Of a DNA stretch of 64,000 bases, positions 12,736-51,776 are shown piece after piece; within the stretch, counting starts at the first letter, position 1, and the number at the start of each line of letters is the position of its first letter. Source of the DNA: Candidatus Nealsonbacteria bacterium (GTDB lineage: Bacteria > Patescibacteriota > Minisyncoccia > Minisyncoccales > MHMH01); contig JACPGX010000005.1 of NCBI GenBank assembly GCA_016188865.1, forward strand, positions 114,081 to 178,080, in the 5' to 3' direction. The notes below the pieces were generated by a model. The model did no database searches, was not told the DNA's origin, and was given only the letters and a program-made list of their open reading frames with translations. The translations under genes and the position numbers were made by a program.

Positions 12736-12774
12736 TTGTTAGACACTCGGTGTTGGACACCGAGTGTCTAACAA
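12736..12774. repeat. REP-like palindrome, family 1 (TTGTTAGACACTCGGTGT-TGG-ACACCGAGTGTCTAACAA), at the 3' flank of RAYT-1
   Basis: It has perfect 18-bp arms. A second hairpin of the same family lies at 13469-13507 on the other side of the gene. A half-site lies inside the gene at 13266-13283. Confidence 0.9.
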
Positions 12775-12777
12775 TCT

Positions 12778-13452
12778 TCAATCAAGTAATTGTTTTTCAT
12801 CTAGTATTTTGGATAAATCTTTAGCTCCGCTTGTTTCCACGAATAATTTATACTTTTCACTGCTAGAAAATTGTTTGGTGACAATGCCAGTTTCTAAAAG
12901 ATTTCCCCACCGATTTTTATTTATACAATCCTGGTAACTAGAATAAGGGAAGAGGTGTTCTCTGTCGGCCCATTCCTTGATTTCTCTTGGATTGCGGTGA
13001 ATATAAGCGGAGAGATAAAGAAGCTGGTCGTCATTTTTAATATGGACAATTTGAAATGGGCCCTGAAAAAGATGCCCCGAGATTTTATATTTTGTATTGA
13101 AGTATTTTGTATAAGCGTTTAAAACTCTTTGCATATATTGGGAAATACCGTTTTCTTTTAATCCGTGGATAATTAAATGGAAATGATTTGGCATCAGCGT
13201 GAAATTAATCAATTCTATGCTTCGATTTTTTATTATTTCCTCTACAACCTCCCGCGAGATGTTAAACACCGAGTGTCTAACAAAGCAGGCAACTTGTCTG
13301 CCGAGATTATAGAAAGTCAAATGAGATTGGCAGTGAGTGATTAAGAAAAGAAATCTTATCCAATCTTTTTCATCACGAAAAACTGGTTGTTTATTATTAC
13401 CCCTATTGTAGATGTGATAATATTCTCCGGAAACAATTTTAACTTTTCTCAT
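12778..13452 (-). CDS. REP-associated tyrosine transposase (RAYT / IS200-IS605-like HUH Y1 transposase), paralog 1
   Basis: HUH motif MPNHFHLII, catalytic Tyr motif YIHRNP, and an N-terminal GEYYHIYNRG beta-strand. It is flanked on both sides by cognate hairpins. Confidence 0.75.
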   Translation of the reverse strand: MRKVKIVSGEYYHIYNRGNNKQPVFRDEKDWIRFLFLITHCQSHLTFYNLGRQVACFVRHSVFNISREVVEEIIKNRSIELINFTLMPNHFHLIIHGLKENGISQYMQRVLNAYTKYFNTKYKISGHLFQGPFQIVHIKNDDQLLYLSAYIHRNPREIKEWADREHLFPYSSYQDCINKNRWGNLLETGIVTKQFSSSEKYKLFVETSGAKDLSKILDEKQLLD

Positions 13453-13468
13453 ACGTTCTTATTCTAGC

Positions 13469-13507
13469 ATGTTAGACACTCGGTGTCCAACACCGAGTGT
13501 CTAACAT
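13469..13507. repeat. REP-like palindrome, family 1 (ATGTTAGACACTCGGTGT-CCA-ACACCGAGTGTCTAACAT), at the 5' flank of RAYT-1
   Basis: It has perfect 18-bp arms and lies 16 nt upstream of the RAYT-1 start. Confidence 0.9.
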
Positions 13508-13665
13508 GGCAGGATTATTCAACATAGTGCCCAACATTTACTAGTGGGACTTAAACAAAATGACCCCCGTTGAATACAGGGATCATTTGCTGGCATTAAA
13601 TGCCTAAAACGTGCTTTTTTATTCGTGTCCACTAAACGGGGTACACTTCACACCCGTGTATTTTT

Positions 13666-14262
13666 TTATTTCCTATTGTCAAGGGCGGAGGAGAGGGTTT
13701 CGTCGTCGGCGTATTCGAGTTCGGAGCCGACGGGCAGGCCGCGGCCGAGCTTGGTAACTTTTTTGCCAAGAGGCGCAAGGGTTCTTTCTAAGTATAGGGA
13801 AGTGGCTTCGCCTTCAGTAGTAGGATTAGTGGCTATAATAATTTCTTGAATTTCAGGCAATTTAGTAATTTCCAGCAGTTCTTTTACCCTTAGTTTTTCT
13901 ATATCTTCTTTTCTTAGTTTGGAAACAGTGCCCCCCAAAATAAAATACCTCCCGTGGTATTTTTTTGTTTTTTCAATGGTTTCTAGGTCGGTTTCTTTTT
14001 CCACAACACAGAGCAACGTTTTATCTCGGCCATTATCAGAGCAAATTGCGCAGAGTTCTATCTCTCCCTCAAATGGTTTGAAACAAAAAGAACATAGTTT
14101 TACTTTGTTTTTTAAATCAGCGATAGATTCAATGGCTTCTTTTACCTCGCTTTTGGGAAGTTTTAGCAAATAAAAAACAAAACGGGCGGCTGTTCTGGGG
14201 CCTACCGTGGGAAACTTGGAAAATATTGCGATTAGCCTTTCAATGGAAGGGGAGTAAGCCAT
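13666..14262 (-). CDS. recR: Recombination protein RecR
   Basis: HhH at the N-terminus, a C4 zinc finger (CSFCFK...CAICSD) and a Toprim domain. Confidence 0.9.
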   Translation of the reverse strand: MAYSPSIERLIAIFSKFPTVGPRTAARFVFYLLKLPKSEVKEAIESIADLKNKVKLCSFCFKPFEGEIELCAICSDNGRDKTLLCVVEKETDLETIEKTKKYHGRYFILGGTVSKLRKEDIEKLRVKELLEITKLPEIQEIIIATNPTTEGEATSLYLERTLAPLGKKVTKLGRGLPVGSELEYADDETLSSALDNRK

Positions 14263-14263
14263 T

Positions 14264-15616
14264 TTAAAAATCTTCGTTTACGTGGGTTTTGTCTAAATTT
14301 CTGAATGTTACTCTTTGGTCATCAAAAAACAGTTTTACGCTGCCGGTTGGTCCGTTTCTGTGTTTGGCAACAATAATTTCAGCCACATTGCTGGGCACGG
14401 TTTCACCTCTTTCTTTTTCGCGGTAGATGAAAAGTACGACGTCAGCATCTTGCTCCAGCGATCCGGACTGTCTAAGGTCGGCTAGTTTTGGTCGGGGAGG
14501 GATTCTTGCTTCTACGGCTCTAGATAGCTGAGAAAGAGCCAAAACAGGCACTTCTAATTCTCTAGCTAAACTTTTTAATGACCTCGATATTTCTGTAACC
14601 TGCTGGACTTCGCCGACATTGGTATTTCTTGGTTCCATTAATTGCAGATAATCTATCACAATCAAACCTAAACCTTTTTCTGCCTGGAGGCGTCTAGCCA
14701 TAGCTCTCATTTGAAGAATATTTGATGTGGCGGCATCATCAATATAAATTGGAGCACCGGAAAGATCTGCCATAGCTTGCTGAATTTTCGTGAAGTCATT
14801 TTCTTCGCCTGTACTTGAAAGTTTTCCAGTCCTTATCCGCCAAGCATCTACGCCAGATTGTGCAGAAATGAGCCTGTCAACGATTTGATCTTTCGACATT
14901 TCCAAACTGAATATCCCTACGGGAATTTTTTGCTGATTGGCAATATTTCTGGCTATATCTACTGCCAAAGCCGATTTTCCCATGGAAGGCCGGGCGGCTA
15001 AAATAATCAAATCAGATTTTTGCAGGCCAGCTAGTTTGTTGTCTAAGTCCGCAAAGCCGGTAGGCAGGCCGCGCAGCGCTCCCTCATATTTTGAAAGCTT
15101 GTCCAGTCTTTCAAAAGCATCTTCCAGCGTGTCTTTTACTGCTATAAAATTTTGGTTAAGAGATTTTTGGGTGATGCTGAAAATTTTCTTTTCAGCTTGG
15201 TCCAGCAATTCATCAACTTCTTCAGTCTCGTTATAGCCCATTAGCCCAATATCATAAGAAGCTTCTATTAAATCGCGCAAGATTCTTTTCTTTTGGACGA
15301 TTTTAGCATAGTTCAAAACATGAGCGGCCGTAGGCACGGTATTAATGAGTTCGGTTAAATAGGCGCTTCCGCCGATTTCTGGCAAAGTATTCTTTTCTTT
15401 AAGCCGGGCTGAAACCGACAATAAATCAATGGGTTCGTTTCTTTCAAAAAGATCCTGCGTAGCAGAATAAATCTCCTGATGAATGCCCCTATAAAAGTCT
15501 TTCGGCTGCAAAAAATCCACCACTTTTATAATAGCGTTTTTATCGAGCATCAAGCAGCCCAAAAGTGATTTTTCTGCTTCAATATTTTGCGGAGGAATTT
15601 TATCGGGTGTTTCCAT
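14264..15616 (-). CDS. dnaB: Replicative DNA helicase DnaB
   Basis: An N-terminal DnaB domain (PPQNIEAEKSLLGCLM) and a RecA-like domain with Walker A GARPSMGKS. Confidence 0.9.
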   Translation of the reverse strand: METPDKIPPQNIEAEKSLLGCLMLDKNAIIKVVDFLQPKDFYRGIHQEIYSATQDLFERNEPIDLLSVSARLKEKNTLPEIGGSAYLTELINTVPTAAHVLNYAKIVQKKRILRDLIEASYDIGLMGYNETEEVDELLDQAEKKIFSITQKSLNQNFIAVKDTLEDAFERLDKLSKYEGALRGLPTGFADLDNKLAGLQKSDLIILAARPSMGKSALAVDIARNIANQQKIPVGIFSLEMSKDQIVDRLISAQSGVDAWRIRTGKLSSTGEENDFTKIQQAMADLSGAPIYIDDAATSNILQMRAMARRLQAEKGLGLIVIDYLQLMEPRNTNVGEVQQVTEISRSLKSLARELEVPVLALSQLSRAVEARIPPRPKLADLRQSGSLEQDADVVLFIYREKERGETVPSNVAEIIVAKHRNGPTGSVKLFFDDQRVTFRNLDKTHVNEDF

Positions 15617-15658
15617 ACTTGATTAGTATACTAAAGTTTCTTGAATAGTTCAAATTTT

Positions 15659-15672
15659 AGGAGGTCGAACCT
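15659..15672. repeat. Palindromic repeat family A, half copy (GGAGGTCGAACCTC)
   Basis: A single arm plus the TAAATATT tail, lying between the cysS stop and the dnaB start. Confidence 0.6.
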
Positions 15673-15679
15673 CTAAATA

Positions 15680-17047
15680 TTATCGTTGAATTTTTTTTAA
15701 TTTCGAGCCTTGCTTGGTATCTTCAACCTGCCAGTCGAGCTTTATTATCTCATTTCTTATTTCATCGGCTTTTTGCCAGTCGCTTTTTTTTCGATATTCT
15801 TGGCGTTGCCTGACTAAGTCAAGCAACGCTTTCGGGGGCTTTTTTTGGTGTTTTGGCCAGAAGATAAAGTTTAAAAATTCGTCAATCTGTTTTAGAAATT
15901 TTAAAGTATCTTTAGCATCTAAAGTATTTTTTTGGCGCATTAGGTCAAATATCACGGCAATGGCTTTCGGCGTGTTAAAGTCGTCTTCCATGGCTTTTTC
16001 GAAGTTGGTTTCCAATTTTTTGATTTCCGAAATCCTCTCAAATTTGAGTGGATTTCGGAAATCTTTTAATCTGTCGACGAATTCATCAATCTTTTCCAAT
16101 TCTCTTTCGGCCTGCGCGACAGATTCTTCGGTATAATCAATAGGCGAACGGTAATGATTTTTTAGTATCAAAAATCTTAATAAGCGGGGGGAGTATTTTT
16201 CTGTAAAGTCTTTAATGGTTATAAAATTGCCTAGCGATTTAGACATTTTTTGCCCATTGACTTTTAAAAAGCCGGGATGCAGCCAGTATTTTACCATCGG
16301 CCTTTTACTGGAGATAGCTTCCATTTGAGCTATTTCAGCCTCGTGGTGGGGGAACATTAAATCAACCGCTCCTCCGTGCATATCATACTGGGAGCCGAAG
16401 AATTTTTCGGTAATGGCCGTATCCTCTATGTGCCAGCCTGGTCTGCCAAAACCCCACGGGCTAGGCCATTTGGGTTCTCCGGGTTTGGAGATTTTCCATA
16501 AAGCAAAGTCCCCTTTATTTTTTTTGCTTACAGCTTCATCGATTCTGGAAACCGCATCTTCTGCCTGCAGGGCGGTTCTTCCCGATAATTTTCCGTAATT
16601 TTTAAACTTTGAAATATCGTAATAAATACCGTCTTCTATCTGATAGGCATACTTTTTATCCAGCAGTTTTTTCACTTGGCCGATTATTTCTTTTATGTAA
16701 TCTGTAGCTCTTGCGTATTTTGTAACAGCATTAACCTTCAAATTCTTCATATCTTCCGAATATTTTTTTTCAAAATTTCGGGCTAGTTTTAAAGGAGAAA
16801 TTCCTTTTTCTTTTGCTCGGTTTATAATTTTGTCGTCGATGTCAGTAATATTCTGCAAATAAAAAATATTAAAGCCTCTTTGCTTTAAATATTTTGCAAT
16901 CATGTCAAAAGCCAGATATGTTCTAGCGTGCCCGATATGGGCTGAATCGTAAACCGTCGGCCCGCAAACAAAAAGTTTTATTTTTTTGCCATGGGCTGGC
17001 TTGAATATTTCTTTTTTCCGCGTTAAGGTACTATAAAGCTTTAGCAT
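15680..17047 (-). CDS. cysS: Cysteine--tRNA ligase
   Basis: HIGH-type motif CGPTVYDSAHIGHARTY and KMSKS motif KMSKSLGN. Confidence 0.9.
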   Translation of the reverse strand: MLKLYSTLTRKKEIFKPAHGKKIKLFVCGPTVYDSAHIGHARTYLAFDMIAKYLKQRGFNIFYLQNITDIDDKIINRAKEKGISPLKLARNFEKKYSEDMKNLKVNAVTKYARATDYIKEIIGQVKKLLDKKYAYQIEDGIYYDISKFKNYGKLSGRTALQAEDAVSRIDEAVSKKNKGDFALWKISKPGEPKWPSPWGFGRPGWHIEDTAITEKFFGSQYDMHGGAVDLMFPHHEAEIAQMEAISSKRPMVKYWLHPGFLKVNGQKMSKSLGNFITIKDFTEKYSPRLLRFLILKNHYRSPIDYTEESVAQAERELEKIDEFVDRLKDFRNPLKFERISEIKKLETNFEKAMEDDFNTPKAIAVIFDLMRQKNTLDAKDTLKFLKQIDEFLNFIFWPKHQKKPPKALLDLVRQRQEYRKKSDWQKADEIRNEIIKLDWQVEDTKQGSKLKKIQR

Positions 17048-17056
17048 GATTTTATT

Positions 17057-25030: not shown

Positions 25031-25043
25031 AAAATAAATAAAA

Positions 25044-25075
25044 ACATACGAGAACGGTTCTCGTATGTTTTTATG
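25044..25075. terminator. Bidirectional rho-independent terminator (perfect 12-bp stem ACATACGAGAAC-CG-GTTCTCGTATGT, T-runs on both sides)
   Basis: The hairpin is followed by TTTTTAT on the plus strand. On the minus strand it is followed by TTTTTATTTATTTTTT, downstream of the rnpB 3' end. Its core ACGAGAACGGTTCTCGT also occurs inside miaA and thrS. Confidence 0.8.
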
Positions 25076-25076
25076 T

Positions 25077-25442
25077 CCCAGCAAGTCTATAAGCCGAATT
25101 CTGTTCCGCCTCGTCGGCGGATGGTAATTATCTATCTAGGTCCGACATCGCTGTCGAGACTCTGTGCGAGTTACTTTTAACGAAAGTTCCAAGATGAATC
25201 CCAGAACTTCCGGTTTACTCTTGCTCTTGGGTAAGAATTTAGCCGTTTCACCCTTCGACAAGCTCAGGGCAAGCCCCAAACTAGTGAAGACTCGTCTCTG
25301 TTCGCATCTCTGCCTCGCCCAAAATTTTGGGCGGGCGGCAGGTGTTACCTGCTACCTTTTTAACCCCCGTTAAACGGGGAGTAAGAGTTCGGACTTTCCT
25401 CCAGGCACAGTCTTGTGCCTGGCAATCACCCGACTTACTGGG
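25077..25442 (-). ncRNA. rnpB: RNase P RNA (bacterial type A-like)
   Basis: The minus strand contains GGAGGAAAGTCCGAACTC (P4 5' strand), AGGGTGAAACGGC (the GGGUGAAA region) and ACAGAATTCGGCTTAT (P4 3' strand). A P1 helix forms between CCCAGTAAGTC and GACTTGCTGGG. Confidence 0.8.
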
Positions 25443-35706: not shown

Positions 35707-37140
35707 ATGAATTTAGCCAGCTTAACTATTACCCAAGCTCACGATGGCTTGGTGAAAAAAGAATTTTCCGCCCTAGAGCTAGCCCGGGCTTTTTTAGATG
35801 AGATAGAAAAATCAGATAAAAGTATATTTGCTTTTTTAACCTTAACTCCAGACTTAGCGCTTTTCCAAGCTAAAAAGATTGATGATTTAATTTCCCAAGG
35901 AAACAGCATACCGCTTTTAGCCGGTATTCCAGCGGCAATAAAAGATAATATATTGGTCGAGAACATGAGATGCACAGCTGCCTCAAAAATTTTGGAAAAT
36001 TATACAGCTCCCTACAGCGCAACCGTCATTAAGAAACTCGAGAAACATGGATCAATAATTTTGGGAAAAACTAACCTTGATGAGTTTGCCATGGGGGCTT
36101 CAACTGAAAATTCAGCATTTGGCCCGACTAAAAATCCCCGCAATTTAAGCAGGGTTCCCGGCGGTTCATCGGGAGGGTCGGCAGCAGCGGTAGCGGGCAA
36201 TCTTGCGGTTTATGCCTTGGGGTCAGATACCGGCGGCTCCATAAGGCAGCCAGCTTCTTTTTGCGGAGTGGTCGGCTTGAAGCCGACCTATGGGGCAGTT
36301 TCCAGATACGGTCTAATTGCCATGGCTTCTTCGTTGGACCAAATAGGGCCGCTCGCTAAGACAGTCGAAGATGCAAGAATAGTTTTCGATGCTATTCGCG
36401 GCAGAGATCATTTTGACTCAACATCAATCGAACCGGAAGTTAAAAATTTAAAATTTAAAATTAAAAATTTAAGGGTTGGCGTGCCGAAGGAATATTTCAT
36501 TAAAGGAATGGAGAAAGGCGTGGAGAAAGCTGTTAAAAATGCTATAAATAAATTAGAGGAAGCCGGAGCTAAAATTGTAGAAGTGAGCTTGCCTCATTGC
36601 ACTGATTACGCTTTAGCGGCTTATTATATCCTTATGTCATCGGAGGTTTCAGCCAATTTAGCCAGATATGACGGCATAAAATACGGATACTCCGAAGCAC
36701 GAAATCCGAAGCACGAAATCCGAAACCTTATAGACGTTTATTTGCAAAGCAGAAAAAATGGATTAGGCCACGAAGTGCGCCGGCGAATAATGTTAGGAAC
36801 TTATGCCTTATCGTCGGGTTATTATGAAGCTTATTATTTACGGGCTCAAAAAGTAAGGGCTAAAATTATTGAAGATTTTGCCAATGCTTTCAAGAAGGCA
36901 GACGTCATTGCTACTCCGGTTGCTCCCACTACAGCTTTTAAGCTCGGCGATAAAACAAAAGACCCATTAAGCATGTATTTAGCGGATATTTTTGTTACGG
37001 CCGTTAATTTAGCAGGGCTCCCCGGACTTTCCCTGCCCTGCGGCAAATCTAGTGATTTGCCTGTTGGACTGCAATTTATCGGCAAACACTTCGAAGATAA
37101 TTTTATTTTAGAATTAGGAGAATTTTTCGAGAAATTGTAA
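35707..37140 (+). CDS. gatA: Asp/Glu-tRNA(Asn/Gln) amidotransferase subunit A (amidase signature)
   Basis: GGSSGGSAAAVA amidase signature and the Ser-cisSer-Lys triad context. Confidence 0.9.
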   Translation: MNLASLTITQAHDGLVKKEFSALELARAFLDEIEKSDKSIFAFLTLTPDLALFQAKKIDDLISQGNSIPLLAGIPAAIKDNILVENMRCTAASKILENYTAPYSATVIKKLEKHGSIILGKTNLDEFAMGASTENSAFGPTKNPRNLSRVPGGSSGGSAAAVAGNLAVYALGSDTGGSIRQPASFCGVVGLKPTYGAVSRYGLIAMASSLDQIGPLAKTVEDARIVFDAIRGRDHFDSTSIEPEVKNLKFKIKNLRVGVPKEYFIKGMEKGVEKAVKNAINKLEEAGAKIVEVSLPHCTDYALAAYYILMSSEVSANLARYDGIKYGYSEARNPKHEIRNLIDVYLQSRKNGLGHEVRRRIMLGTYALSSGYYEAYYLRAQKVRAKIIEDFANAFKKADVIATPVAPTTAFKLGDKTKDPLSMYLADIFVTAVNLAGLPGLSLPCGKSSDLPVGLQFIGKHFEDNFILELGEFFEKL

Positions 37141-38226: not shown

Positions 38227-38258
38227 TTACGAGGCTTCGCCTCGTAAGTTTTATTTTT
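38227..38258 (+). terminator. Rho-independent terminator (TTACGAGGC-TTC-GCCTCGTAA + GTTTTATTTTT)
   Basis: A perfect 9-bp stem with a T-run. It closes the tRNA cluster. Confidence 0.8.
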
Positions 38259-40411: not shown

Positions 40412-41014
40412 ATGGATAAAAAACACTGGGTTGAAGAGAAATTTGAAGAATGCGGGGCAATTTTAGACGGGCATTTTGTTTTAGCTTCCGAAAGGCACAG
40501 TAAGACATATTTGGAAAAAGCCTTAGTTTACGTTAACCCGGAAATAGTCTCAGAGCTATGCTATCAGATGGCTATAAATGTCGGCCTATCTTCAAAAGTA
40601 AGCGTTTCAAATATCGAATGCGTTGTTGGTCCATCTTTGGGCGGTATTATTTTATCTCAATTTACCGCCTATCATTTAAGCTCTATGTTTTCGAAAAATG
40701 TATTATCGCTATTCACAGAAAAAGATGCCGCCGGGAAACAAGTTCTTAAGAGAGGATATCAGAAACTCATTGCTGGTAAAAGAGTATTAATTGTTGACGA
40801 TATTTTAACCACTGGGGAATCGATTAAGCAAGTAGCTCAAGCAGTTGAGCAAGCCGGAGGAATAATTGTGGCTGTAGCTGTGATATGTAACCGCGAAGAT
40901 GTAACTTCAGCAAAGCTCGGCTATCCGCTTTTCTGTCTGTGGAGAACAAATATCGAAAGCTGGCCGGCAAAAGAGTGCCCCCTATGTCAGCGAGGCATTC
41001 CCATCACAATGTAA
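40412..41014 (+). CDS. pyrE: Orotate phosphoribosyltransferase
   Basis: PRPP-binding motif VLIVDDILTTGESI. Confidence 0.85.
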   Translation: MDKKHWVEEKFEECGAILDGHFVLASERHSKTYLEKALVYVNPEIVSELCYQMAINVGLSSKVSVSNIECVVGPSLGGIILSQFTAYHLSSMFSKNVLSLFTEKDAAGKQVLKRGYQKLIAGKRVLIVDDILTTGESIKQVAQAVEQAGGIIVAVAVICNREDVTSAKLGYPLFCLWRTNIESWPAKECPLCQRGIPITM

Positions 41015-41033
41015 CTGGTACGACCCGTTACAT
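41009..41033. repeat. REP-like palindrome, family 2 (ATGTAACtGGTACGACCCGTTACAT, 1 mismatch), overlapping the pyrE stop
   Basis: The same palindrome occurs at 41109-41133 and 41851-41875 (both perfect). Confidence 0.85.
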
Positions 41034-41037: not shown

Positions 41038-41066
41038 AAAAGAGCTTTGTAAAAAGCTCTTTTATG
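41038..41066 (+). terminator. Rho-independent terminator (AAAAGAGCTTT-GTA-AAAGCTCTTTT)
   Basis: An 11-bp stem flanked by A- and T-runs, between two REP copies after pyrE. Confidence 0.7.
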
Positions 41067-41108
41067 TTTGCGTTATTCTTGATTTGTATCTTTCCTTAAT
41101 CTATAATA

Positions 41109-41133
41109 ATGTAACGGGTACGACCCGTTACAT
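41109..41133. repeat. REP-like palindrome, family 2 (ATGTAACGGGTACGACCCGTTACAT), at the 5' flank of RAYT-2
   Basis: A perfect 10-bp stem with an ACG loop. It ends at the RAYT-2 start codon. Confidence 0.9.
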
Positions 41134-41851
41134 GCATAATATGCCGGGGAAAAGAAAGGTACAATTTGTTAATGGGGGAATATATCATATCGTAACGAGA
41201 GCCGTTGATGGCACGGAACTTTTTCGTGAACAAGGCGATAATCTTCGGATGACTCATGATATTTTTGAATTTAATGATTTAACGCCACTTTCATCAGCGT
41301 TGCGAATTGTTCATTGTCGAAATAAAAATAACACCATTCCTCTTACTACGGAACGCAGAGAAAGGAAATTATTAGTGGAAATCTTGGCATTTTGTTTTAT
41401 GCCTAACCATGTTCATTTATTACTTAGACAACTTCAAGACAGGGGAGTTCAAAAATTTATGCAAAAATTAGGTGGTTACACCACTTATTATAATAAAAAA
41501 TATCAGAGGCAGGGTTATCTTTTTCAGGGCAGATATCGAGCAGTTCACATTAAAGATGATAAACAATTAATGACGGTATTTGTTTATATTCATACTAATC
41601 CAGTGGCCCTTCTTTACCCGGGCTGGAAAGAAAGAGGTATTAAAGATATTAAAAAGGCCATAGAATTTATTAATCAATATAGATGGTCAAGCTATTTGGA
41701 TTATCTGGGAATTAAGAATTTTCCGTCTTTGACCAGTAGAGAATTTTTAATAAAAACAATAGGTGGAATGGAAGAGTGCCAAAGATTAGTAGAAGATTGG
41801 CTTTATCAAAAACGTGTACTATTTGACCTTGATAAGGTCGCACTGGAATAA
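41132..41851 (+). CDS. REP-associated tyrosine transposase (RAYT), paralog 2
   Basis: HUH motif MPNHVHLLL, Tyr motif YIHTNP, and the C-terminal WSSY motif (RWSSYLDYLG). The start is set at the ATG overlapping the palindrome; 41141 is also possible. The ORF-track start at 41084 reads through the palindrome. Confidence 0.75.
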   Translation: MHNMPGKRKVQFVNGGIYHIVTRAVDGTELFREQGDNLRMTHDIFEFNDLTPLSSALRIVHCRNKNNTIPLTTERRERKLLVEILAFCFMPNHVHLLLRQLQDRGVQKFMQKLGGYTTYYNKKYQRQGYLFQGRYRAVHIKDDKQLMTVFVYIHTNPVALLYPGWKERGIKDIKKAIEFINQYRWSSYLDYLGIKNFPSLTSREFLIKTIGGMEECQRLVEDWLYQKRVLFDLDKVALE

Positions 41852-41875
41852 TGTAACGGGTACGACCCGTTACAT
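41851..41875. repeat. REP-like palindrome, family 2, at the 3' flank of RAYT-2
   Basis: A perfect copy overlapping the RAYT-2 stop codon. Confidence 0.9.
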
Positions 41876-41932
41876 TTAGTTTTCCACAATTGGGGGCTTG
41901 ATTTTGACTTAATTTTAGGGTAAAATAGAGTA

Positions 41933-43008: not shown

Positions 43009-44976
43009 ATGATATTTTCATATAATTGGCTGCAATCTTTTTTCACGAGAAAATTGCCCAAGCCGGAAAAATTGGCAGAGCTTTTGACTATGCATAGTTT
43101 TGAAGTAGGGGAAGTTAAAAAAGCCGGTAGCGATTGGACACTAGATATCGATGTCTTGCCAAACAGGGCGGGAGATTGTTTTTCGCATTTCGGAATAGCC
43201 AGAGAAATAGCCGCTATTATAAATTCGAAATTCGAAATTCGAAATTCGAAACAAATTATAAATTCTAAATTACAAACGAAAGATTTTGTTTCGGTGGACG
43301 TTAGGGCTAAACAGGCGTGTTTAAGATATACGGCCAAAGTGATTACAGACGTTAAGGTGGGGCCATCCCCAAAGTGGTTGAAAGATAAGCTGGAAGTTTG
43401 CGGCTTGAATTCCATTAATAATGTGGTAGATGCCGCCAATTACGTGATGCTAGAGACTGGTCAGCCAATGCATGCCTTTGATTTAGAGAAATTAGAAGAT
43501 CAAAAAATTATTGTTAGATTTGCCAAAGAAGACGAGAAAATTACGACTTTAGACAATCAGGTATTCAATCTAAACCCAGCAATACTGGTTATTGCCGATG
43601 TTAAAAAACCGGTAGCTATAGCCGGAATTAAGGGGGGCACATCTCCGGAGATCAGTGAAGCGACAAAAACCATAGTTTTGGAGTCGGCCAATTTCGATCC
43701 GACTATTACCCGTAGAGCATCAAAAGAGTTAAATCTTAAAACAGACGCATCCTTGAGATTTGAACACGGAATTGATCCCAATTTATCCGAAATAGCAATC
43801 GATAGGGCAGCCGAGATTATTTCACGAGTTGCTGGCGGTCAAATTGCTTCAGGATTAGTTGATTTTTATTCCAAGAAAGTTTTGCCCAAAAGAATTAAAT
43901 TGGATTTGGATTATTTAAAAAGCTTGTTAGGCATTGAAATTTCAGCTGCTGAAGTAAAAGTGATTTTAAACAGCTTAGGTTTTAAAATAATCGGAGTCCG
44001 ACTCCCATTATTGGTTGAAATTCCGACATTCAGGTTAGATATTTCTCTGCAGGAAGATTTGATTGAAGAAGTTGGCCGGATTTATGGTTATGATAAAATA
44101 CCGGTTGTTTTTCCTCTGGCTTCTTTGATCCCGCCCGTCAGAAACGATAATTTATTTTGGACCAGCATAGTAAAAGATATTTTTAGAGGAGTCGGTTTTA
44201 CAGAAATATATAACTATTCTTTTCAAAAAGAAGCAGGAGAAGTAGAAGTAGAAAATCCCCAAAGTTTGGAATATCGATATTTAAGGCCAAGTTTGATTCC
44301 TAATTTATTGAAAAACGTTGAAAAGAACAGCGTCAATTTTAAAAAGATAAAAATTTTTGAGTTGGGGAAGGTATTCGAAGATAAGACAGAGAAGAGAATG
44401 CTTACCGGGATGCTTGTTGGAGAAGATTTCTATCGGTTGAAAGGAGTGATAGATTCGCTTTTCAATAAATTGGGCATAGTTAAAGTTTGGTATGACGATT
44501 ATCAGGCTAGCCCGGAAGATAGTCCAAAATCTTTGTGGCATCATAAAAAATCCGCAGAAATTAAAGTTAGAGACATTGAGCTGGGTTTTTTGGGTGAACT
44601 AAAAGATAAGCCCAATATAGTGGCTTTCGATTTAGATTTTGATAAATTAACGGCTCTGGCTTCAGAAGAGCACGAATACAGGCAAATTTCTAAATACCCT
44701 GCGACAATAAGAGATTTAGCAGTTTTGGTGCCCGCATTAACCAGAGTGGAAGAAGTGCTGAATGTTATAGAAACGGCAGGCGGCAGTATTTTAAAAGATG
44801 TTGATTTATTTGATATTTATGAAGGAGAAGGCATTGGAGATGGGAAGAAAAATTTAGCTTTTCATTTTGTTTATCAGGCAGAGGACAGAACTTTAACCTC
44901 GATTGAAGTTTATAAAATTCATCAAAAAATAATTGAAGCTCTGGAGGAAAATCCAGAGTGGGAAGTGAGACGATAA
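43009..44976 (+). CDS. pheT: Phenylalanine--tRNA ligase beta subunit (short form)
   Basis: It has B3/B4 and B5 domains and a C-terminal anticodon-binding domain. It follows pheS. It contains an in-frame heptamer microsatellite at 43221-43252. Confidence 0.85.
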   Translation: MIFSYNWLQSFFTRKLPKPEKLAELLTMHSFEVGEVKKAGSDWTLDIDVLPNRAGDCFSHFGIAREIAAIINSKFEIRNSKQIINSKLQTKDFVSVDVRAKQACLRYTAKVITDVKVGPSPKWLKDKLEVCGLNSINNVVDAANYVMLETGQPMHAFDLEKLEDQKIIVRFAKEDEKITTLDNQVFNLNPAILVIADVKKPVAIAGIKGGTSPEISEATKTIVLESANFDPTITRRASKELNLKTDASLRFEHGIDPNLSEIAIDRAAEIISRVAGGQIASGLVDFYSKKVLPKRIKLDLDYLKSLLGIEISAAEVKVILNSLGFKIIGVRLPLLVEIPTFRLDISLQEDLIEEVGRIYGYDKIPVVFPLASLIPPVRNDNLFWTSIVKDIFRGVGFTEIYNYSFQKEAGEVEVENPQSLEYRYLRPSLIPNLLKNVEKNSVNFKKIKIFELGKVFEDKTEKRMLTGMLVGEDFYRLKGVIDSLFNKLGIVKVWYDDYQASPEDSPKSLWHHKKSAEIKVRDIELGFLGELKDKPNIVAFDLDFDKLTALASEEHEYRQISKYPATIRDLAVLVPALTRVEEVLNVIETAGGSILKDVDLFDIYEGEGIGDGKKNLAFHFVYQAEDRTLTSIEVYKIHQKIIEALEENPEWEVRR

Positions 44977-47332: not shown

Positions 47333-47379
47333 TTTTGCTAATATCAAAATTGAGCCCGCAAGGGCTTTTTAAAAACCTT

Positions 47380-47565
47380 ATGTTATTAAAAATCGCCGCT
47401 TTTCTTAAAGAAGTAAATATGGAAATAAAAAAAGTAAACTGGCCCACAAAACACCAGCTTTTAAGATACACCATGATTGTCCTTGGTATTTCTGGAGCCG
47501 TAGCGTTATTTTTAGGCAGTTTAGACTTCCTTTTTACCACTATATTGAATAAATTCGTACTCTAA
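47380..47565 (+). CDS. secE: Protein translocase subunit SecE
   Basis: KEVNMEIKKVNWPTKHQLLRYTMIVLGISGAVALFLG, conserved position upstream of nusG. The start is chosen at the internal ATG. Confidence 0.6.
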   Translation: MLLKIAAFLKEVNMEIKKVNWPTKHQLLRYTMIVLGISGAVALFLGSLDFLFTTILNKFVL

Positions 47566-47566
47566 T

Positions 47567-48112
47567 ATGCCAAAACAGCAGGTAGAACAAGCGAAAAATT
47601 GGTATGTTATACATACTTACTCGGGATATGAAGATGCAGTAGCCGCAGCCCTTAAGCAGCGGGTTGAGTCTTTGGGCATGGAAGACAGAATTTTTAATGT
47701 AATAGTGCCCAAAGAAAAAAAGATAAAAATTAAAGAAGGCAAGAGAAGAGTAGTTGAAGAAAAAATTTATCCGGGGTATGTTTTAGTTGAGATGGTAGTT
47801 ACCGACGACAGCTGGTATGTGGTGAGAAATACGCCCAATGTTACGGGTTTTGTCGGGGCTGGCACCACTCCTGTGCCAGTTTCTCAACAGGAAATGGATA
47901 CTTTAAAGAAGAAAATGGGGGTTGATGTTCCGCAGTATAAAATCGATGTCCAAATTGGCGAGGCTGTTAAAATTACCGATGGCCCATTTAAGGATTTTGA
48001 CGGCAAGGTTTCAGAGATTGATGAGCAAAGAGGCAAAGTTAAAGTGTTGGTCAACATGTTCGGTAGAGATACGCCCGTCGAATTAGATTCATTACAAATC
48101 AAAAAGATTTAA
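47567..48112 (+). CDS. nusG: Transcription termination/antitermination factor NusG
   Basis: An NGN domain ([11 protein letters not shown]) and a KOW motif ([15 protein letters not shown]). Confidence 0.9.
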
Positions 48113-48114
48113 TT

Positions 48115-48540
48115 ATGGCAAAGAAAATTAAAGCTATTGTAAAACTTCAGATTCAAGCAGGAGCAGCTACCCCGGCGCCGCCGGTGGGGCCGGCTTTGGC
48201 TCAGCACGGTTTGAACATTATGGAGTTTTGCCAAAAATTCAATGAAGCCACTAAAGCTAACGCCGGTTTTAAAATTCCTGTGGAAATTACGATTTTTGAG
48301 GACAGAACTTATACTTTCAAACTAAAACAGCCGCCTGCCTCCGAGCTTTTAAAGAAAATAGCTGGCATTGAAAAAGGCTCCGGTGTGCCAAACAAAACAA
48401 AGGTTGCTAAAATTACTAGAGATCAGCTTAAAAAGGTGGCCGAACAGAAAATGCAGGATTTGAATGCCAATGATATTGAAGCAGCTATGAGAATTATTGA
48501 GGGTACAGCCCGCAACATGGGGATTGAAATAACCGGTTAA
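48115..48540 (+). CDS. rplK: 50S ribosomal protein L11
   Basis: [43 protein letters not shown] is typical of uL11. Confidence 0.9.
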
Positions 48541-48547
48541 ATATTTG

Positions 48548-48621
48548 GGATGTCCGAAACCGCGCGTCAACACCCGGTGTTGACGAAGAAACACCGGGTG
48601 TTTAATCGGTTTCGGACATCC
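48548..48621. promoter_or_regulatory. Composite palindromic element: an outer 15-bp perfect inverted repeat (GGATGTCCGAAACCG / CGGTTTCGGACATCC) enclosing two tandem palindromes (GTCAACACCCGGTGTTGAC and AAACACCGGGTGTTT) whose centres are 21 bp apart
   Basis: Read directly from the sequence between rplK and the dCMP deaminase start. There is no downstream T-run. The ORF-track N-terminal extension at 48550 lies within this structure and is rejected. Confidence 0.6.
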
Positions 48622-48633
48622 AGACATAAAAAC

Positions 48634-49185
48634 ATGGAATCAACAAATTCTCAAAATCAGAGGCCTTCATGGGATGAGTTTTGGTTCACTTTGGCGCTTT
48701 TTTATTCTACTCGTGGAACTTGCGACAGGTTGAAAGCAGCCTGTCTTTTAATTGATAAAAATAATAGGCTGGTTGGAGCCGGTTATAACGGTTCTCTGCC
48801 CGGGCATCCGCATTGCGACGAGGCAGGGCATTTGATGGTTGACGGCCATTGTTTGAGGACTTTGCATGCTGAAGTTAATGCCATTATGCACAGCGTGGGA
48901 GATTTGGAGGGAGCTACTGCTTATGTTTTGGGGACTCCCTGCATTGACTGCGTCAAAAAACTTCTTGCTAAAAAAGTGAAAAAGATTTTTTTTACCAGGG
49001 ATTACGATAATCAGGCCCGCGGGGGAGAATATATTTTTGATTTAGCCAAAACATCGGGAGCGGAAATGAGGAGAGTTGATGTGGATTTTACGGAAGTTTT
49101 AAGTAAGGAAATGACAATTCTTACCGGAACAGGTGGCGCTTTCTTCGGCCAAAATTATGGGTTTACGAAACCCACTCAAATTTGA
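48634..49185 (+). CDS. dCMP deaminase (ComEB-type CMP/dCMP deaminase, zinc-binding)
   Basis: HAEVNAI and PCIDCVKKL zinc-ligand motifs. Confidence 0.8.
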   Translation: MESTNSQNQRPSWDEFWFTLALFYSTRGTCDRLKAACLLIDKNNRLVGAGYNGSLPGHPHCDEAGHLMVDGHCLRTLHAEVNAIMHSVGDLEGATAYVLGTPCIDCVKKLLAKKVKKIFFTRDYDNQARGGEYIFDLAKTSGAEMRRVDVDFTEVLSKEMTILTGTGGAFFGQNYGFTKPTQI

Positions 49186-49210
49186 GAGGGTTTCGTAAAC
49201 CCCAAATATA

Positions 49211-49633
49211 ATGGAAATACGAATTCAAAAAATAGATCCCTCGGCTAAGGTTCCCGTTTTCGCTTACGAGGGCGACGCTGGAATGGATATTTTTTCCTGC
49301 GAAGATTGCAAAATAGAGCCCTTTGAAAAGAAGGCCATAAGCACTGGTTTGAAAATAGCGGTGCCTGCTGGTTTTGCCGGTTTTATTTGGGACAAATCCG
49401 GTTTAGCTCTTAATAATTCATTAAAAACTATGGCCGGAGTTTTAGATTCAGGCTATAGGGGAGAGTTGAAAATAATTTTAATGAATTTAGGCAAAGAGCC
49501 TTACGAGGTTAAAAAAGGCCAGAAAGTTGCCCAGCTTATAATCAAAAAAATAGAAAAACCGGAAATTATTGAAGATGTTTTGGATGATACCGAGCGCGGC
49601 GAAAGGGGGTTTGGCAGTTCGGGGCTAACTTAA
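49211..49633 (+). CDS. dut: dUTP diphosphatase
   Basis: dUTPase motifs AGMDI, GVLDSGYRGE and RGERGFGSSG. Confidence 0.9.
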   Translation: MEIRIQKIDPSAKVPVFAYEGDAGMDIFSCEDCKIEPFEKKAISTGLKIAVPAGFAGFIWDKSGLALNNSLKTMAGVLDSGYRGELKIILMNLGKEPYEVKKGQKVAQLIIKKIEKPEIIEDVLDDTERGERGFGSSGLT

Positions 49634-49638
49634 ATTTT

Positions 49639-50256
49639 ATGGAAAAAAATCCATATCTTGGCAAATTTATCGTTTTTGAGGGGTTGGATGGCTCCGGGCA
49701 ATCAACTCAGGCAGCTCTTTTAAAAGATTTTTTGGTTCAGAGTGGCCATGGTGTTATTTTAACAAAAGAGCCGACTATGGATTCCGGAGCCGGCAGGCAA
49801 ATCCGCCAAGTTTTGAACAAAAATACAGGGGTGCAACCCCTGTATCTGCAGGAGTTGTTTGCCGAGGATAGAAGAGAGCATTTGGCTAATGTCATCGCTC
49901 CAGCTTTAAAAGACGGAAAAATAGCGATATCTGATCGGTATTTTTTTTCCTCCTTTGCTTATGGAGCAGCTTCGGGAGTAGACTTAGAAGAGCTTATTAA
50001 ATTAAACCAAGGTTTTTTGACACCCGATTTAACTATAATTTTAAAAGTAAGGCCGGAAGTTTGTATGGAAAGAATAGGGAAAAGAGGAGAACCGCAAACT
50101 CTTTTTGAGGAAGCAGAAAGACTTGGGATGGTATGGCAGACCTATCAGGCATTGCCGGAACGTTTCGAAAATGTTTATATTATAAATGGTGAAAGGCAAA
50201 TTAAAGAAGTTTTTTCAGAAGTCAAAGAAATAGTACGTTCAAAATTGAATTTATAA
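49639..50256 (+). CDS. tmk: Thymidylate kinase
   Basis: P-loop FEGLDGSGQST, the DRY-like DRYFFSS motif and a lid region. Confidence 0.9.
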   Translation: MEKNPYLGKFIVFEGLDGSGQSTQAALLKDFLVQSGHGVILTKEPTMDSGAGRQIRQVLNKNTGVQPLYLQELFAEDRREHLANVIAPALKDGKIAISDRYFFSSFAYGAASGVDLEELIKLNQGFLTPDLTIILKVRPEVCMERIGKRGEPQTLFEEAERLGMVWQTYQALPERFENVYIINGERQIKEVFSEVKEIVRSKLNL

Positions 50257-50266
50257 GGAGGTTAAA

Positions 50267-50935
50267 TTGGTGAAAAAATTTTTGGATGTAGTTTCTCTTG
50301 AAGCGAGGGATTTACCCGAAGCTTGGCGGTCTTGCGTGAGAGAGCTTTTCGATAAGGGCCATAAATATAAGATTGACAGGGGCAGCTTTGCCGGACAGCA
50401 TAGACTGGAATTTGATTTTATCACCGTCAGAGTCAAGTATCCCGGTACCAGACCCATAGTTCCGGTGCTTGATGTGCCTCAAGGCGTGCCGCCGCCTTCA
50501 ACGATGGATTATGTTGAATCTTACCTGCCTTATTTAATGACTTCTGAAAGAAAAGAAGGCGAGCAATATACTTACGGCCAATATCTTGAACCGCAGATTG
50601 CCAAAGCGATCAAAATGTACAAAGAAGACGGACACGGCACCAATCAGGCGTACATGGCCGTGGGCGATAAAAACTCCATTGATCTTTCCGATCCTCCTTG
50701 TTTGAGAGGCATTGATACCAGAATAAGGTACGGAAAACTCCACTTTATGGTCTATTTTCGCTCTTGGGACCTTTGGGCCGGCTTTCCTTCTAATTTGGCG
50801 GCTATACAGCTTTTGAAAGAATATATGGGCTCCGAAATCGGCGTGGAGGACGGAGAACTGATAGCTTGCAGCAAGGGCCTGCACCTTTACGAATATATTT
50901 GGGATATGGCCAAAGTGATGTGCGGAATAAAATAG
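50267..50935 (+). CDS. Thymidylate synthase ThyA-family protein, short divergent (archaeal-like) form
   Basis: PPC (nucleophile Cys), LHFMVYFRSWDLWAGFPSN (aligns with LSCQLYQRSADVFLGLPFN, including the uracil-specifying Asn) and GELIACSKGLHLY. Only 222 aa. Confidence 0.6.
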   Translation: MVKKFLDVVSLEARDLPEAWRSCVRELFDKGHKYKIDRGSFAGQHRLEFDFITVRVKYPGTRPIVPVLDVPQGVPPPSTMDYVESYLPYLMTSERKEGEQYTYGQYLEPQIAKAIKMYKEDGHGTNQAYMAVGDKNSIDLSDPPCLRGIDTRIRYGKLHFMVYFRSWDLWAGFPSNLAAIQLLKEYMGSEIGVEDGELIACSKGLHLYEYIWDMAKVMCGIK

Positions 50936-50943
50936 AATAATAA

Positions 50944-50974
50944 AGCTCTCGACTTTCGAGGGCTTTTCATTTTG
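50944..50974 (+). terminator. Rho-independent terminator (AGCTCTCGA-CTT-TCGAGGGCT + TTTCATTTT)
   Basis: A hairpin with one mismatch and a T-rich tail after the ThyA-like gene. Confidence 0.55.
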
Positions 50975-50999
50975 TATTTATTAATCCATATGTTATATT

Positions 51000-51028
51000 A
51001 AAGTAGCGGGAACATTTCCCGTTACTTT
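51000..51028. repeat. REP-like palindrome, family 3 (AAAGTAGCGGGAA-CAT-TTCCCGTTACTTT), at the 5' flank of RAYT-3
   Basis: 13-bp arms with one A-C mismatch. It is related to family 2 through the shared GTAACGGG...CCCGTTAC core. Confidence 0.85.
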
Positions 51029-51032
51029 AATT

Positions 51033-51743
51033 ATGCCGAGTAAAAAAAGGCCGCCATTAGTTAATAGCGAGATATATCATATAGTAATAAGGACAGTAGA
51101 GGATCTTAAACTTTTTCGTGATGACCACGATTTTTTAAGAATGATACATGATTTATTCGCTTTTAATGACACAGTGCCAGTTTCCTCATATTTTCGTAGG
51201 GATAAAGTAACGGGAACGTTTCCCGCTACTTTTATGAAGAGAAAAAGAGAAGTATTGGTTGAAATTTTAGCCTTTTGCTTGATGTCGAATCATGTTCATT
51301 TATTAGTACGTCAATTAAAAGACGATGGAATAAGTAATTTTATGAGAAAAATTGGAGCCGGTTACAGCGCTTATTATAATCAGAAATATAAGAGAGCTGG
51401 TCATGTTTTTCAGGGAAGATATAAAATAGTTCATATAACCAATGATAATCAGCTAAAAACTATTTTTGTATATATTCACACTAATCCAGTGGCAATTATT
51501 TATCCCCACTGGAAGGAGGAAGGGATCGGAATTAAATATTTAGGCAAAGTTATTCAATTTATAGAAGAATACCGTTGGTCAAGTTATTCAGATTATCTTG
51601 GAAATAAAAATTTTCCATCTCTGACTTTCAGAGAATGGTTGATGGGAGAGATTGGCGGGATCAACGAGTGCCGAAGATTTATTAATGATTGGCTGGAAAC
51701 AAAAAAAGATTTAGCTGATTTGGATAAAATTGCTATCAATTAA
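51033..51743 (+). CDS. REP-associated tyrosine transposase (RAYT), paralog 3
   Basis: HUH motif MSNHVHLLV, Tyr motif YIHTNP and the RWSSYSDYLG motif. It is closest to paralog 2. It contains an in-frame copy of its own REP palindrome at 51204-51232. Confidence 0.75.
   Translation: MPSKKRPPLVNSEIYHIVIRTVEDLKLFRDDHDFLRMIHDLFAFNDTVPVSSYFRRDKVTGTFPATFMKRKREVLVEILAFCLMSNHVHLLVRQLKDDGISNFMRKIGAGYSAYYNQKYKRAGHVFQGRYKIVHITNDNQLKTIFVYIHTNPVAIIYPHWKEEGIGIKYLGKVIQFIEEYRWSSYSDYLGNKNFPSLTFREWLMGEIGGINECRRFINDWLETKKDLADLDKIAIN
51204..51232. repeat. REP family 3 palindrome embedded in-frame within the RAYT-3 coding sequence (encodes KVTGTFPATF)
   Basis: AAAGTAACGGGAA-CGT-TTCCCGCTACTTT. It lies in the variable loop between the N-terminal strand and the HUH motif. 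Paralog 2 has no insertion at this position. Confidence 0.85.
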
Positions 51744-51747
51744 TTTT

Positions 51748-51776
51748 AAAGTAACGGGAAATGTTCCCGCTACTTT
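51748..51776. repeat. REP-like palindrome, family 3, at the 3' flank of RAYT-3 (inverted orientation)
   Basis: AAAGTAACGGGAA-ATG-TTCCCGCTACTTT, 5 nt after the stop. Confidence 0.85.

Follow-up and report, generated by a model that had tools for sequence, protein, structure and literature searches.

Low-copy, hairpin-delimited RAYT-like cassettes in Patescibacteria: three loci of a Candidatus Nealsonbacteria contig and their relatives

Introduction

Which kind of genetic element is formed by a transposase-like gene that lies between two copies of a palindrome of its own? This question is raised by a stretch of 64,000 nucleotides (the window; positions 114,081 to 178,080 of the 245-kb contig JACPGX010000005.1, GenBank assembly GCA_016188865.1) from a metagenome-assembled genome (MAG) of Candidatus Nealsonbacteria. 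It contains three genes, here designated P1, P2 and P3, whose products carry a HUH (histidine–hydrophobic residue–histidine) motif and a single putative catalytic tyrosine (Y1 type) and resemble REP-associated tyrosine transposases (RAYTs), REP being the abbreviation of repetitive extragenic palindrome. An initial annotation, made from the sequence alone, had seen in them three RAYT–REP systems and a sign of active or recent REP mobilisation. Here, we show that each locus is a compact cassette of ~0.75-0.87 kb that consists of a private hairpin, the Y1 HUH gene and the same hairpin again, with a third copy in frame inside P1 and P3, and that this anatomy recurs in about 60% of 96 related genes. 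These loci are probably best understood as low-copy, hairpin-delimited RAYT-like cassettes that stand between IS200 elements and REPtrons, and their hairpins as the likely single-stranded DNA (ssDNA) substrates of the encoded proteins.

It is already known that RAYTs are accompanied by cognate flanking palindromes and that there are several RAYT/REP pairs per genome. A RAYT has been described as a single-copy, vertically inherited, housekeeping-like locus (PMC5581495), and the spread of REPs and their co-evolution with RAYTs still await an explanation (PMC8266576). The literature that we searched gives no description of a Patescibacteria-wide clade with a private hairpin at a fixed in-frame site before the HUH motif and at both gene ends, nor of such a layout together with low copy number and cassette-like presence and absence.

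The three Y1 proteins

The open reading frames (ORFs) of P1, P2 and P3 are real and intact, as had been annotated initially; only the start of P2 is better placed at 41141 than at 41132, because the N-terminus MPGKRKV... then aligns with that of P3 (MPSKKRP...) and because 41132 lies inside a hairpin. The HUH motif (NHFH or NHVH) and the tyrosine motif YIH[RT]NP had been recognised correctly in all three proteins, and H87, H89 and Y147 (P3 numbering) are invariant in 45 homologues. P2 and P3 are 59% identical and form the closer pair, P1 sharing ~30% with either of them (30-32% with P3).

Comparison with the Y1 hidden Markov model, the check suggested with the initial annotation, was passed by all three proteins: with Pfam Y1_Tnp (PF01797) P1, P2 and P3 score 44.6, 40.8 and 47.6 bits at a cut-off of 23. 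REP_Tyr_transpos (NF047646) is the top NCBIfam model for each of them, but with 40.9, 47.6 and 52.9 bits they stay under its equivalog cut-off of 80; the NCBIfam IS200 model (NF033573) gives only 17-18 bits against a cut-off of 55. The tyrosine motif of class 2 is Y---NP (PMC6006769), and P1–P3 carry it as YIHRNP or YIHTNP. In an AlphaFold2 model of P3, for which 45 sequences were used (mean predicted local distance difference test, pLDDT, of 75), strand β1, helix A and the HUH strand form the core. Foldseek comparison of this model with the PDB returned 4er8_A as best match (E 6.5e-6), which is E. coli TnpA_REP in complex with a REP hairpin, followed by the IS608 and ISDra2 transposases (2a6m, 2xm3, 2vjv). 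A phmmer search of P3 against PDB sequences gave one spurious match only and no solved relative; the link to TnpA_REP is made by the fold search alone. Motifs and predicted fold support the view that P1–P3 are Y1 HUH enzymes of the RAYT / TnpA_REP type with E. coli TnpA_REP as the nearest known fold.

Private hairpins of the cassettes

Each gene has its own palindrome family (families 1, 2 and 3 for P1, P2 and P3, respectively), with one copy on each side at 0-15 nt from the start and stop codons (Table 1). These flanking pairs were already part of the initial annotation and were all found exactly; the matches have a chance expectation of 0.0-0.03 in shuffled sequences. Folded as ssDNA the flanking hairpins reach -9 to -22 kcal/mol (z = -4 to -10). 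They are near-perfect palindromes, and an almost identical hairpin is offered by both strands.

Families 2 and 3 share the core GTAACGGG...CCCGTTAC, as stated before. Of REPs, a conserved 5' GT[AG]G foot is characteristic; family 3 has GTAG on one strand and GTAA on the other and family 2 GTAA on both strands, and family 1 and most homologues show TGT...ACA in its place. The family-3 copies at 51001-51029 and 51748-51776 are exact reverse complements with one G:T / A:C stem position, by which the GTAG foot lies on the coding strand in the upstream copy and on the template strand in the internal and downstream copies. The flanking palindromes of P1 are longer structures resembling two truncated canonical units in inverted orientation.

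The third, in-frame hairpin of P1 and P3 and the additional family-2 copy at 41009-41033 were absent from the initial annotation. Both internal copies fall into one variable loop of the alignment, ~20-25 codons ahead of the HUH motif. In P3 the internal copy has the same orientation as the downstream copy and differs from it in the loop only. In P1 it is located ~25 codons before HUH, at the position known from homologues, and represents an exact 18-nt match to the flanking arm, its 10-bp stem including one G:T pair (-4.8 kcal/mol, z = -2.3). The hairpin-coded residues 58-67 of P3 are within a segment of low confidence in the structural model (residues 55-69, pLDDT <50) that leads from helix A to the HUH strand, and the internal copy is presumably tolerated because it encodes a flexible, disordered surface loop. 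P2 has no internal hairpin: its equivalent segment (~41318-41350) codes for a loop of similar length and does not fold (z = +0.4), which we read as decay and not as a hairpin that was never inserted.

Table 1. Positions of the three genes, their hairpins and adjoining elements in the window
Feature	Position	Strand	Description
P1, RAYT-like Y1 HUH gene	12778-13452	minus	224 aa; HUH N89-H92; YIHRNP with Y150
Family-1 hairpin	12736-12774		directly 3' of P1 stop; 39-nt palindrome, 18-bp stem; -20.5 kcal/mol, z = -10.2
Internal family-1 hairpin	13260-13282	minus	canonical 23-nt unit; gene strand TGTTAGACAC-TCG-GTGTTTAACA; encodes F57-N64
Family-1 hairpin	13468-13508		15 nt 5' of P1 start; 19-bp stem; loop inverted relative to the 12736-12774 copy
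Extra family-2 hairpin	41009-41033	plus	one mismatch; overlaps and supplies the stop codon of the upstream phosphoribosyltransferase gene
Terminator-like hairpin	41038-41063	plus	AAAAGAGCTTTGTAAAAAGCTCTTTT; carried in the inserted P2 segment
Promoter-like TTGATT-17-TATAAT	41079-41107	plus	abuts the P2 upstream hairpin; consensus match only, hits not above shuffles
Family-2 hairpin	41109-41133	plus	7 nt 5' of P2 start; -11.2 kcal/mol, z = -5.0
P2, RAYT-like Y1 HUH gene	41141-41851	plus	236 aa counted from ATG 41141
Family-2 hairpin	41851-41875	plus	overlaps P2 stop codon
Family-3 hairpin	50997-51031 (core 51001-51029)	plus	ends 1-3 nt before P3 ATG; -12.7 kcal/mol, z = -8.6
P3, RAYT-like Y1 HUH gene	51033-51743	plus	236 aa; HUH H87/H89; catalytic Y147
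Internal family-3 hairpin	51204-51232	plus	in frame; encodes K58-F67; -8.9 kcal/mol, z = -4.7
Family-3 hairpin	51748-51776	plus	4 nt 3' of P3 stop codon

Recurrence of the cassette in Patescibacteria

At least 540 relatives of these genes are present in species-representative genomes; 80 loci were fetched and 10 were added by exact-protein look-up, which makes 90 loci. They belong to Parcubacteria and to lineages of the Microgenomates type, except for a few MAGs with other labels; the taxon labels of some loci stem from automated submissions. MAG contigs may be misassembled at repeats. Viral contigs contained no relatives, and plasmids only distant Y1 genes with at most 36% identity over partial alignments. 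The statement that three such systems in 64 kb are unusual had to be abandoned, as this density is ordinary for the lineage: one 20-kb locus (L025) has three Y1 paralogues, and a single 271-kb Nealsonbacteria contig at least four.

Gene anatomy was counted in 96 non-redundant Y1 ORFs, nearly all of them from Patescibacteria. The hairpin detector is heuristic and its counts are lower bounds, since imperfect repeats in some genes were scored as absent. Upstream, internal and downstream hairpins together were detected in 41 genes, upstream and downstream hairpins in 14, upstream and internal hairpins in nine, internal and downstream hairpins in four, a single copy in two and no hairpin in 26. P1, which shows all three copies on inspection by hand, was scored by the script as having the upstream and downstream ones. 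The internal hairpin occurs in at least 55 of the 96 genes and all three copies in at least 41.

Copies were searched with up to 2 mismatches over both arms (about 10%), so that the mismatch within a locus is capped; with this limit the arms differ by 1.9% within a locus (139 of 191 copies are exact) versus 65% between loci. Nearly every stem position shows all four Watson-Crick pair types. Among 70 homologues hairpin distance follows protein distance (Mantel rho 0.44; 0 of 2000 permutations as high), and masking of the hairpin-coded loop leaves this value essentially unchanged (rho 0.437). The co-divergence of protein and palindrome that had been proposed from the P2/P3 pair is borne out by that pair as well as by these homologues. 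A fixed orientation rule for the three copies was sought among the homologues and not found, the commonest arrangement (both flanks inverted versus the internal copy) accounting for 13 of 39; therefore, a strict IS200-like same-strand model was dropped.

The site of the internal copy is narrowly defined. Without any demand for a match to the flanks, a hairpin with a stem of at least 9 bp is found 8-35 codons before HUH in 58 of 94 ORFs, and hairpin density is 7.6/kb in this interval versus 0.32/kb in the rest of the ORF (24-fold). These 58 belong to a total of 75 ORF-internal hairpins, 51 of which fall in one 10-codon bin, and across the homologues the internal hairpin lies 10-28 codons upstream of HUH. 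This bears on the possibility that it is a neutral passenger, i.e. that REP-like hairpins landed repeatedly and independently in one permissive loop and are neither ancestral nor a maintained cis-site. We regard this as unlikely. The loop is predicted to be disordered, in-frame orphan hairpins exist in cysS, pheT, tmk, miaA, thrS and gatA of the same window, and both intragenic REPs and REPs inside tnpA_REP are documented (PMC3733652, PMC6006769). Repeated chance landing leaves unexplained, however, the concentration in a single bin and a reading phase that is the same in 41 of 50 cases. The internal hairpin is moreover always of the gene's own family and is found in P1 and P3, paralogues of only 30% identity, whereas the loop of P2 has kept its length without palindromy and looks like decay.

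Presence and absence at orthologous sites

The genes of the window are not fixed domesticated loci; P2 and P3 are missing from the orthologous sites of relatives. In three relatives with a pheS that is 81-84% identical, the phosphoribosyltransferase gene is followed directly by pheS, and the 78-113 nt between them contain no Y1 gene. Homology with these three genomes resumes 1-3 nt past the downstream hairpin of P2 (~41877-41879), and on the left side it is lost ~8 nt ahead of the outermost hairpin at 41009 (MAFFT alignment). The inserted segment of ~868 nt comprises a hairpin, the terminator-like hairpin, the promoter-like TTGATT-17-TATAAT, a hairpin, P2 and a hairpin. The 41009 copy stands in place of the original 3' end of the upstream phosphoribosyltransferase gene (last codons and terminator), and the terminator-like hairpin at 41038-41063 has no homology to the native terminator of the relatives. 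The native terminator that was lost (AAAGTYCCGTTGAAAAACGGGACTTTTT; L211, 4004-4040) has CCGTT/AACGG and resembles the family-2 core AACGGG/CCCGTT; this may be a hint that look-alike hairpins are targeted, or a coincidence.

In L216 P3 is absent after the thymidylate-synthase-like gene (82% identical), the conserved terminator being kept. At this P3-orthologous site (L216, ~5725-5766) a solitary perfect palindrome of 42 nt with unrelated sequence, AAAATTGTTAATCTATGGCGATCGCCATAGATTAACAATTTT, is located, which may be the footprint of another cassette or the sign of an insertion hot spot.

The genomic contexts give the same picture. The rplU/recR surroundings of P1 are shared by none of the 90 homologous loci, and synteny with pheS or the thymidylate-synthase-like gene was not detected among them except for one pheS neighbour in L006 that is probably coincidental. 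Close homologues of P3 all have different contexts. One tandem duplicate (L028) was seen among the 90 loci. A Y1 gene of L025 (8171-8666 on the minus strand, reversed coordinates) is truncated at its 5' end, covers model positions 66-236 and has a degenerate tyrosine motif (YVNLNN). It starts exactly at a hairpin, in the place that the internal copy occupies in complete genes, and a matching downstream hairpin forms its end. From its sequence this remnant looks like what a deletion between upstream and internal copy would leave. Three independent short-read assemblies (L084, L085 and L086, from Logan) all end 25 nt past the Y1 gene, at the downstream hairpin; it appears that de Bruijn assemblies of Patescibacteria genomes are interrupted at these hairpin repeats.

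Copy number

Families 1-3 are not REPs in the classical sense of high-copy dispersed repeats, a sense which the name REP in the initial annotation implies. Within the 64 kb there is no orphan copy of families 1 and 3 and a single one of family 2, 100 nt away, and just 22 extra copies were counted in 1.1 Mb flanking the homologues, the majority at distances of a few kb at most. A search of the rest of the window for decayed RAYT genes found none, its weak hits being the hairpin-coded peptides themselves. A pattern scan of metagenomes with GTAACGGGN{5,7}CCCGYTAC returned at least 120 single-site matches; among the matches listed none was near a Y1 gene and none was multi-copy, and the candidates were rejected as chance.

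Low copy number in the 64 kb and around the homologues and absence from orthologous sites make it quite improbable that the three loci are classical domesticated REPtrons, in which each RAYT would maintain a numerous REP/REPIN population dispersed over the genome, with the copies around and inside the gene as merely its local members. A gene with flanking palindromes and multiple divergent RAYTs with private repeats are, it is true, textbook REPtron features (PMC6006769, PMC8266576), and dispersal of such hairpins does occur: orphans belonging to other families are present in the window, and some of them are identical to RAYT hairpins elsewhere in Patescibacteria (25036-25076, 54956-54984 and 60281-60303, compared with L084). 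Against a REPtron, the families of P1, P2 and P3 show the few copies given above, and the genes are non-syntenic and missing at orthologous sites, unlike vertically inherited RAYTs (PMC5581495).

Proposed mechanism

TnpA_REP and IS608 TnpA have been demonstrated biochemically to bind folded ssDNA in a strand-specific manner, to cleave it at the hairpin foot via a 5'-phosphotyrosine intermediate and to transfer strands (PMC8266576). By analogy with these enzymes, each protein of the clade would bind its own hairpin as folded ssDNA, e.g. on the lagging-strand template, cut the hairpin foot via a 5'-phosphotyrosine intermediate and rejoin the strands. Exchange between copies could then have four outcomes, namely (a) gain or loss of the whole cassette, as in IS200, (b) overwriting of one hairpin by another, by which the family could drift without its two or three copies becoming different, (c) now and then a deletion between the upstream copy and the internal one and (d) on rare occasions an orphan hairpin seeded at another place, which may be inside a gene.

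Several points weigh against the interpretation as low-copy cassettes with ssDNA substrates. The ssDNA-substrate role of the hairpins in this clade is deduced by analogy with TnpA_REP and IS608 TnpA, and perfect palindromes are equally compatible with double-stranded recognition by a dimer. Loop orientation is not fixed and agrees neither with IS200, whose ends are strictly on the same strand, nor with REPtrons and their inverted layout. P1–P3 score under the RAYT cut-off of NCBIfam, phmmer retrieves no solved relative, and 26 of the 96 genes are without detected hairpins, some of these being false negatives. The search for orphans covered 64 kb only. At the P2 site ~50 nt of native sequence were replaced, so that the insertion is not a clean one. 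Finally, the window contains no near-identical copies and its paralogues are old (30-59% identical), and recent transposition is not supported. The same applies to the active or recent REP mobilisation assumed initially, which finds no support for families 1-3; what the data show is presence and absence of whole cassettes between relatives.

Alternatively, the palindromes could be double-stranded operators or RNA-level elements and not recombination substrates, serving autoregulation by a dimer via the C-terminal helical domain, blocking of translation by the 5' hairpin and termination or stabilisation of the transcript by the 3' hairpin. As a replacement for the cassette interpretation this is a weak candidate, although the one role does not preclude the other. 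In its favour, the hairpins are near-perfect inverted repeats and, with spacers of 1-5 nt, resemble dimer operators. The upstream copy in the window is only 1-15 nt from the start codon, and in P2 and P3 a free ribosome-binding site would not fit in between; in IS200 the ribosome-binding site is known to be hidden in a stem-loop. Hexamers of promoter type overlap or adjoin the upstream hairpin in P1 and P2 (in P1 a weak consensus match, TGGACA-17-TAGAAT, overlapping 13468-13508), and the downstream copy of P2 scores as terminator-like. The promoter hits in the window are, however, not more numerous than in shuffled sequences and were taken as hints only. Regulation alone leaves unexplained the identical third copy at a fixed ORF position in at least 55 genes, the insertion boundaries at hairpins and the invariant catalytic HUH and tyrosine residues. 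That the palindromes are ordinary intrinsic terminators or chance repeats unrelated to the genes is effectively refuted and deserves hardly any credence: T-runs follow some of them, but genuine terminators of the neighbouring genes are kept separately and adjoin at 12680-12710, 41038-41063 and 50942-50966, the gene-specific triplicates exceed the chance expectation, and the pattern recurs in dozens of genomes.

Within the interpretation as hairpin-delimited cassettes, a more far-reaching idea concerns the internal copy. It may be a maintained cis-site that renders the cassette self-contained, the gene carrying the DNA substrate of its product in its own ORF as a heritable master that regenerates or overwrites the flanking and dispersed copies through hairpin exchange by the enzyme; a deletion between upstream and internal copies, as suggested by L025, might then act as a self-limiting switch, and the clade would represent a present-day link from autonomous elements of the IS200 type to REPtrons that are domesticated. 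We put this forward tentatively and would rather doubt it at present; if true, it would explain that protein specificity and palindrome copies change in step across a phylum-level clade.

Irrespective of this idea, the clade offers hundreds of natural protein–hairpin pairs with small, near-perfect and low-copy putative substrates, one of them within the gene's own ORF. P2 and P3, 59% identical and with a shared hairpin core, are suited for swap tests of specificity determinants. The concerted evolution of dispersed palindromes and the proposed route from IS200 to REPtrons become accessible to testing. The cassettes matter as well for the reading of Patescibacteria genomes, which are ~92% coding (as is the window): cassettes and orphan hairpins lie in or next to essential genes, and short-read assemblies break at the hairpins.

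Comparison with known systems

With E. coli TnpA_REP (RAYT, YafM; PDB 4er8) the window proteins share the Y1 HUH fold, the HUH motif with a single catalytic tyrosine in Y---NP and cognate palindromes at the gene borders, as well as the co-evolution of protein and palindrome (PMC8266576). In contrast, sequence identity is ~15%, and the window proteins exceed TnpA_REP by ~70 aa and have an additional helical region at the C-terminus. REPs are bulged and present in hundreds of copies, the palindromes of the window near-perfect and low in copy number, and the window cassettes have a third copy in the ORF and no synteny. The description of RAYTs as housekeeping-like loci does not apply to them, considering the orthologous sites without the gene, the lack of shared synteny in 90 loci and several paralogues per genome.

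Among the TnpA_REP subclasses, 2.4 (Bertels group 4; Cyanobacteria and Bacteroidetes) has REPs in frame within tnpA_REP, in a peripheral loop, and 'double-foot' palindromes (PMC6006769). It is the only described case of a cognate palindrome in frame inside its own RAYT gene. Subclass 2.4 differs from the window proteins by WQ and YIxNNP instead of FQ and YIH[RT]NP, and the position of the internal hairpin is different, the site being here a single fixed one before HUH (10-28 codons). From their sequence P1–P3 resemble subclass 2.1 (Bertels group 1, including TIRYTs), the most IS-like group of RAYTs (PMC5581495). Its signature in Table 1 of PMC6006769, compared by eye, fits them with NHVH/NH[YF]H, FQ, Y[IV]HxNP, an 'SS' tail motif and a median of 238 aa; the alternative motif forms W[EQ] and YIELNP are not seen in P1–P3. 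No REP-like structures are reported for subclass 2.1, only terminal inverted repeats in some members (PMC6006769), whereas in the Patescibacteria clade hairpins lie on either side of the gene and also in its interior.

The likeness to IS200/IS605 elements (IS200, IS608, ISDra2) consists in a Y1 HUH gene with subterminal hairpins, a unit of ~0.7-0.9 kb and a start codon occluded by a hairpin. Like an IS200 element the unit is present or absent between genomes, the P2 insertion being bounded by the hairpins at 41009 and 41875 and P3 being absent in L216. The differences comprise Y---NP and not Y---Q, 224-236 aa with a C-terminal extension versus a core of ~150 aa only, the same palindrome at both ends, the internal third copy and the lack of near-identical multicopy elements and of tnpB.

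Intragenic REPs and Rickettsia palindromic elements (RPEs) are short palindromes in frame in housekeeping genes, including those of tRNA synthetases (PMC3733652), and are comparable with the orphans of the window. They are dispersed in unrelated genes, whereas the copy considered here sits in the gene of the enzyme that presumably acts on it. A nick site inside the coding sequence of the HUH or Rep nuclease itself is present in phiX174 gene A and pT181 repC. These are, however, phage and plasmid replication initiators with a single origin and not chromosomal three-hairpin cassettes.

Orphan hairpins and other features of the window

The three orphans named above have the core ACGAGAAC-N-GTTCTCGT in common and make up a fourth hairpin family, for which the window contains no cognate Y1 gene. 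Two RAYTs of other Nealsonbacteria have the same hairpin: it flanks P0014 (L084) and also interrupts this gene, and it agrees with the hairpin-coded peptide of P0034. Of the three window copies, one adjoins the RNase P RNA at its 3' end; the other two are inside miaA and thrS. The bacterial RNase P class A RNA (25074-25441, minus strand, 115 bits) accounts for the large apparent non-coding gap at 25.0-25.5 kb. Five tRNA genes are located at 6285, 18177, 37721, 37809 and 38057.

Further orphans have counterparts at known RAYT loci: 49821-49847 (in tmk) matches the hairpin of a RAYT in L025 and 38227-38247 that of the L080 RAYT. Orphans occur also at 55330-55354 (the second in-frame hairpin of miaA), 36270-36288 (gatA) and 61275-61301, and a near-copy of the 55330-55354 hairpin is found inside the upstream ORF adjoining the truncated RAYT of L025. 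Compared with L216 the miaA hairpin at 54956 represents an insertion of ~9 aa, and those in tmk and at 55330 are same-length replacements. A 27-nt hairpin, AATAAT[G/C]GGAGTC-C-GACTCCCATTATT, is present twice in frame with 26 of 27 nt identical, at 658-684 (DUF4015 gene) and 43986-44012 (pheT). In pheT it replaces a segment of the same length, for which L214 has a degenerate palindrome at those codons, and it is therefore not a simple insertion.

Composite structures were observed as well. Two intergenic REPIN-like doublets of 44 nt, 1978-2021 and 12275-12318 (GGAGGTYCGACCTCC-N14-GGAGGTCGRACCTCC), are each composed of two small inverted hairpins and can form a long stem of 19 bp. The palindromes of 42-44 nt at 16022-16063 (cysS, in frame) and 49159-49202 (3' edge of the dCMP deaminase ORF) are likewise doublets of small hairpins with the shared centre CTCAAATTTGAG. 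At the 5' end of the same deaminase ORF (48565-48605) a hairpin similar to the P1 type, CGTCAACACC-C-GGTGTTGACG, is followed by the half-site ACACCGGGTGTTTAA. With 211 aa versus 157-166 aa in relatives this ORF is ~45 aa longer, so its real start is probably downstream and the hairpin at 48565-48605 intergenic.

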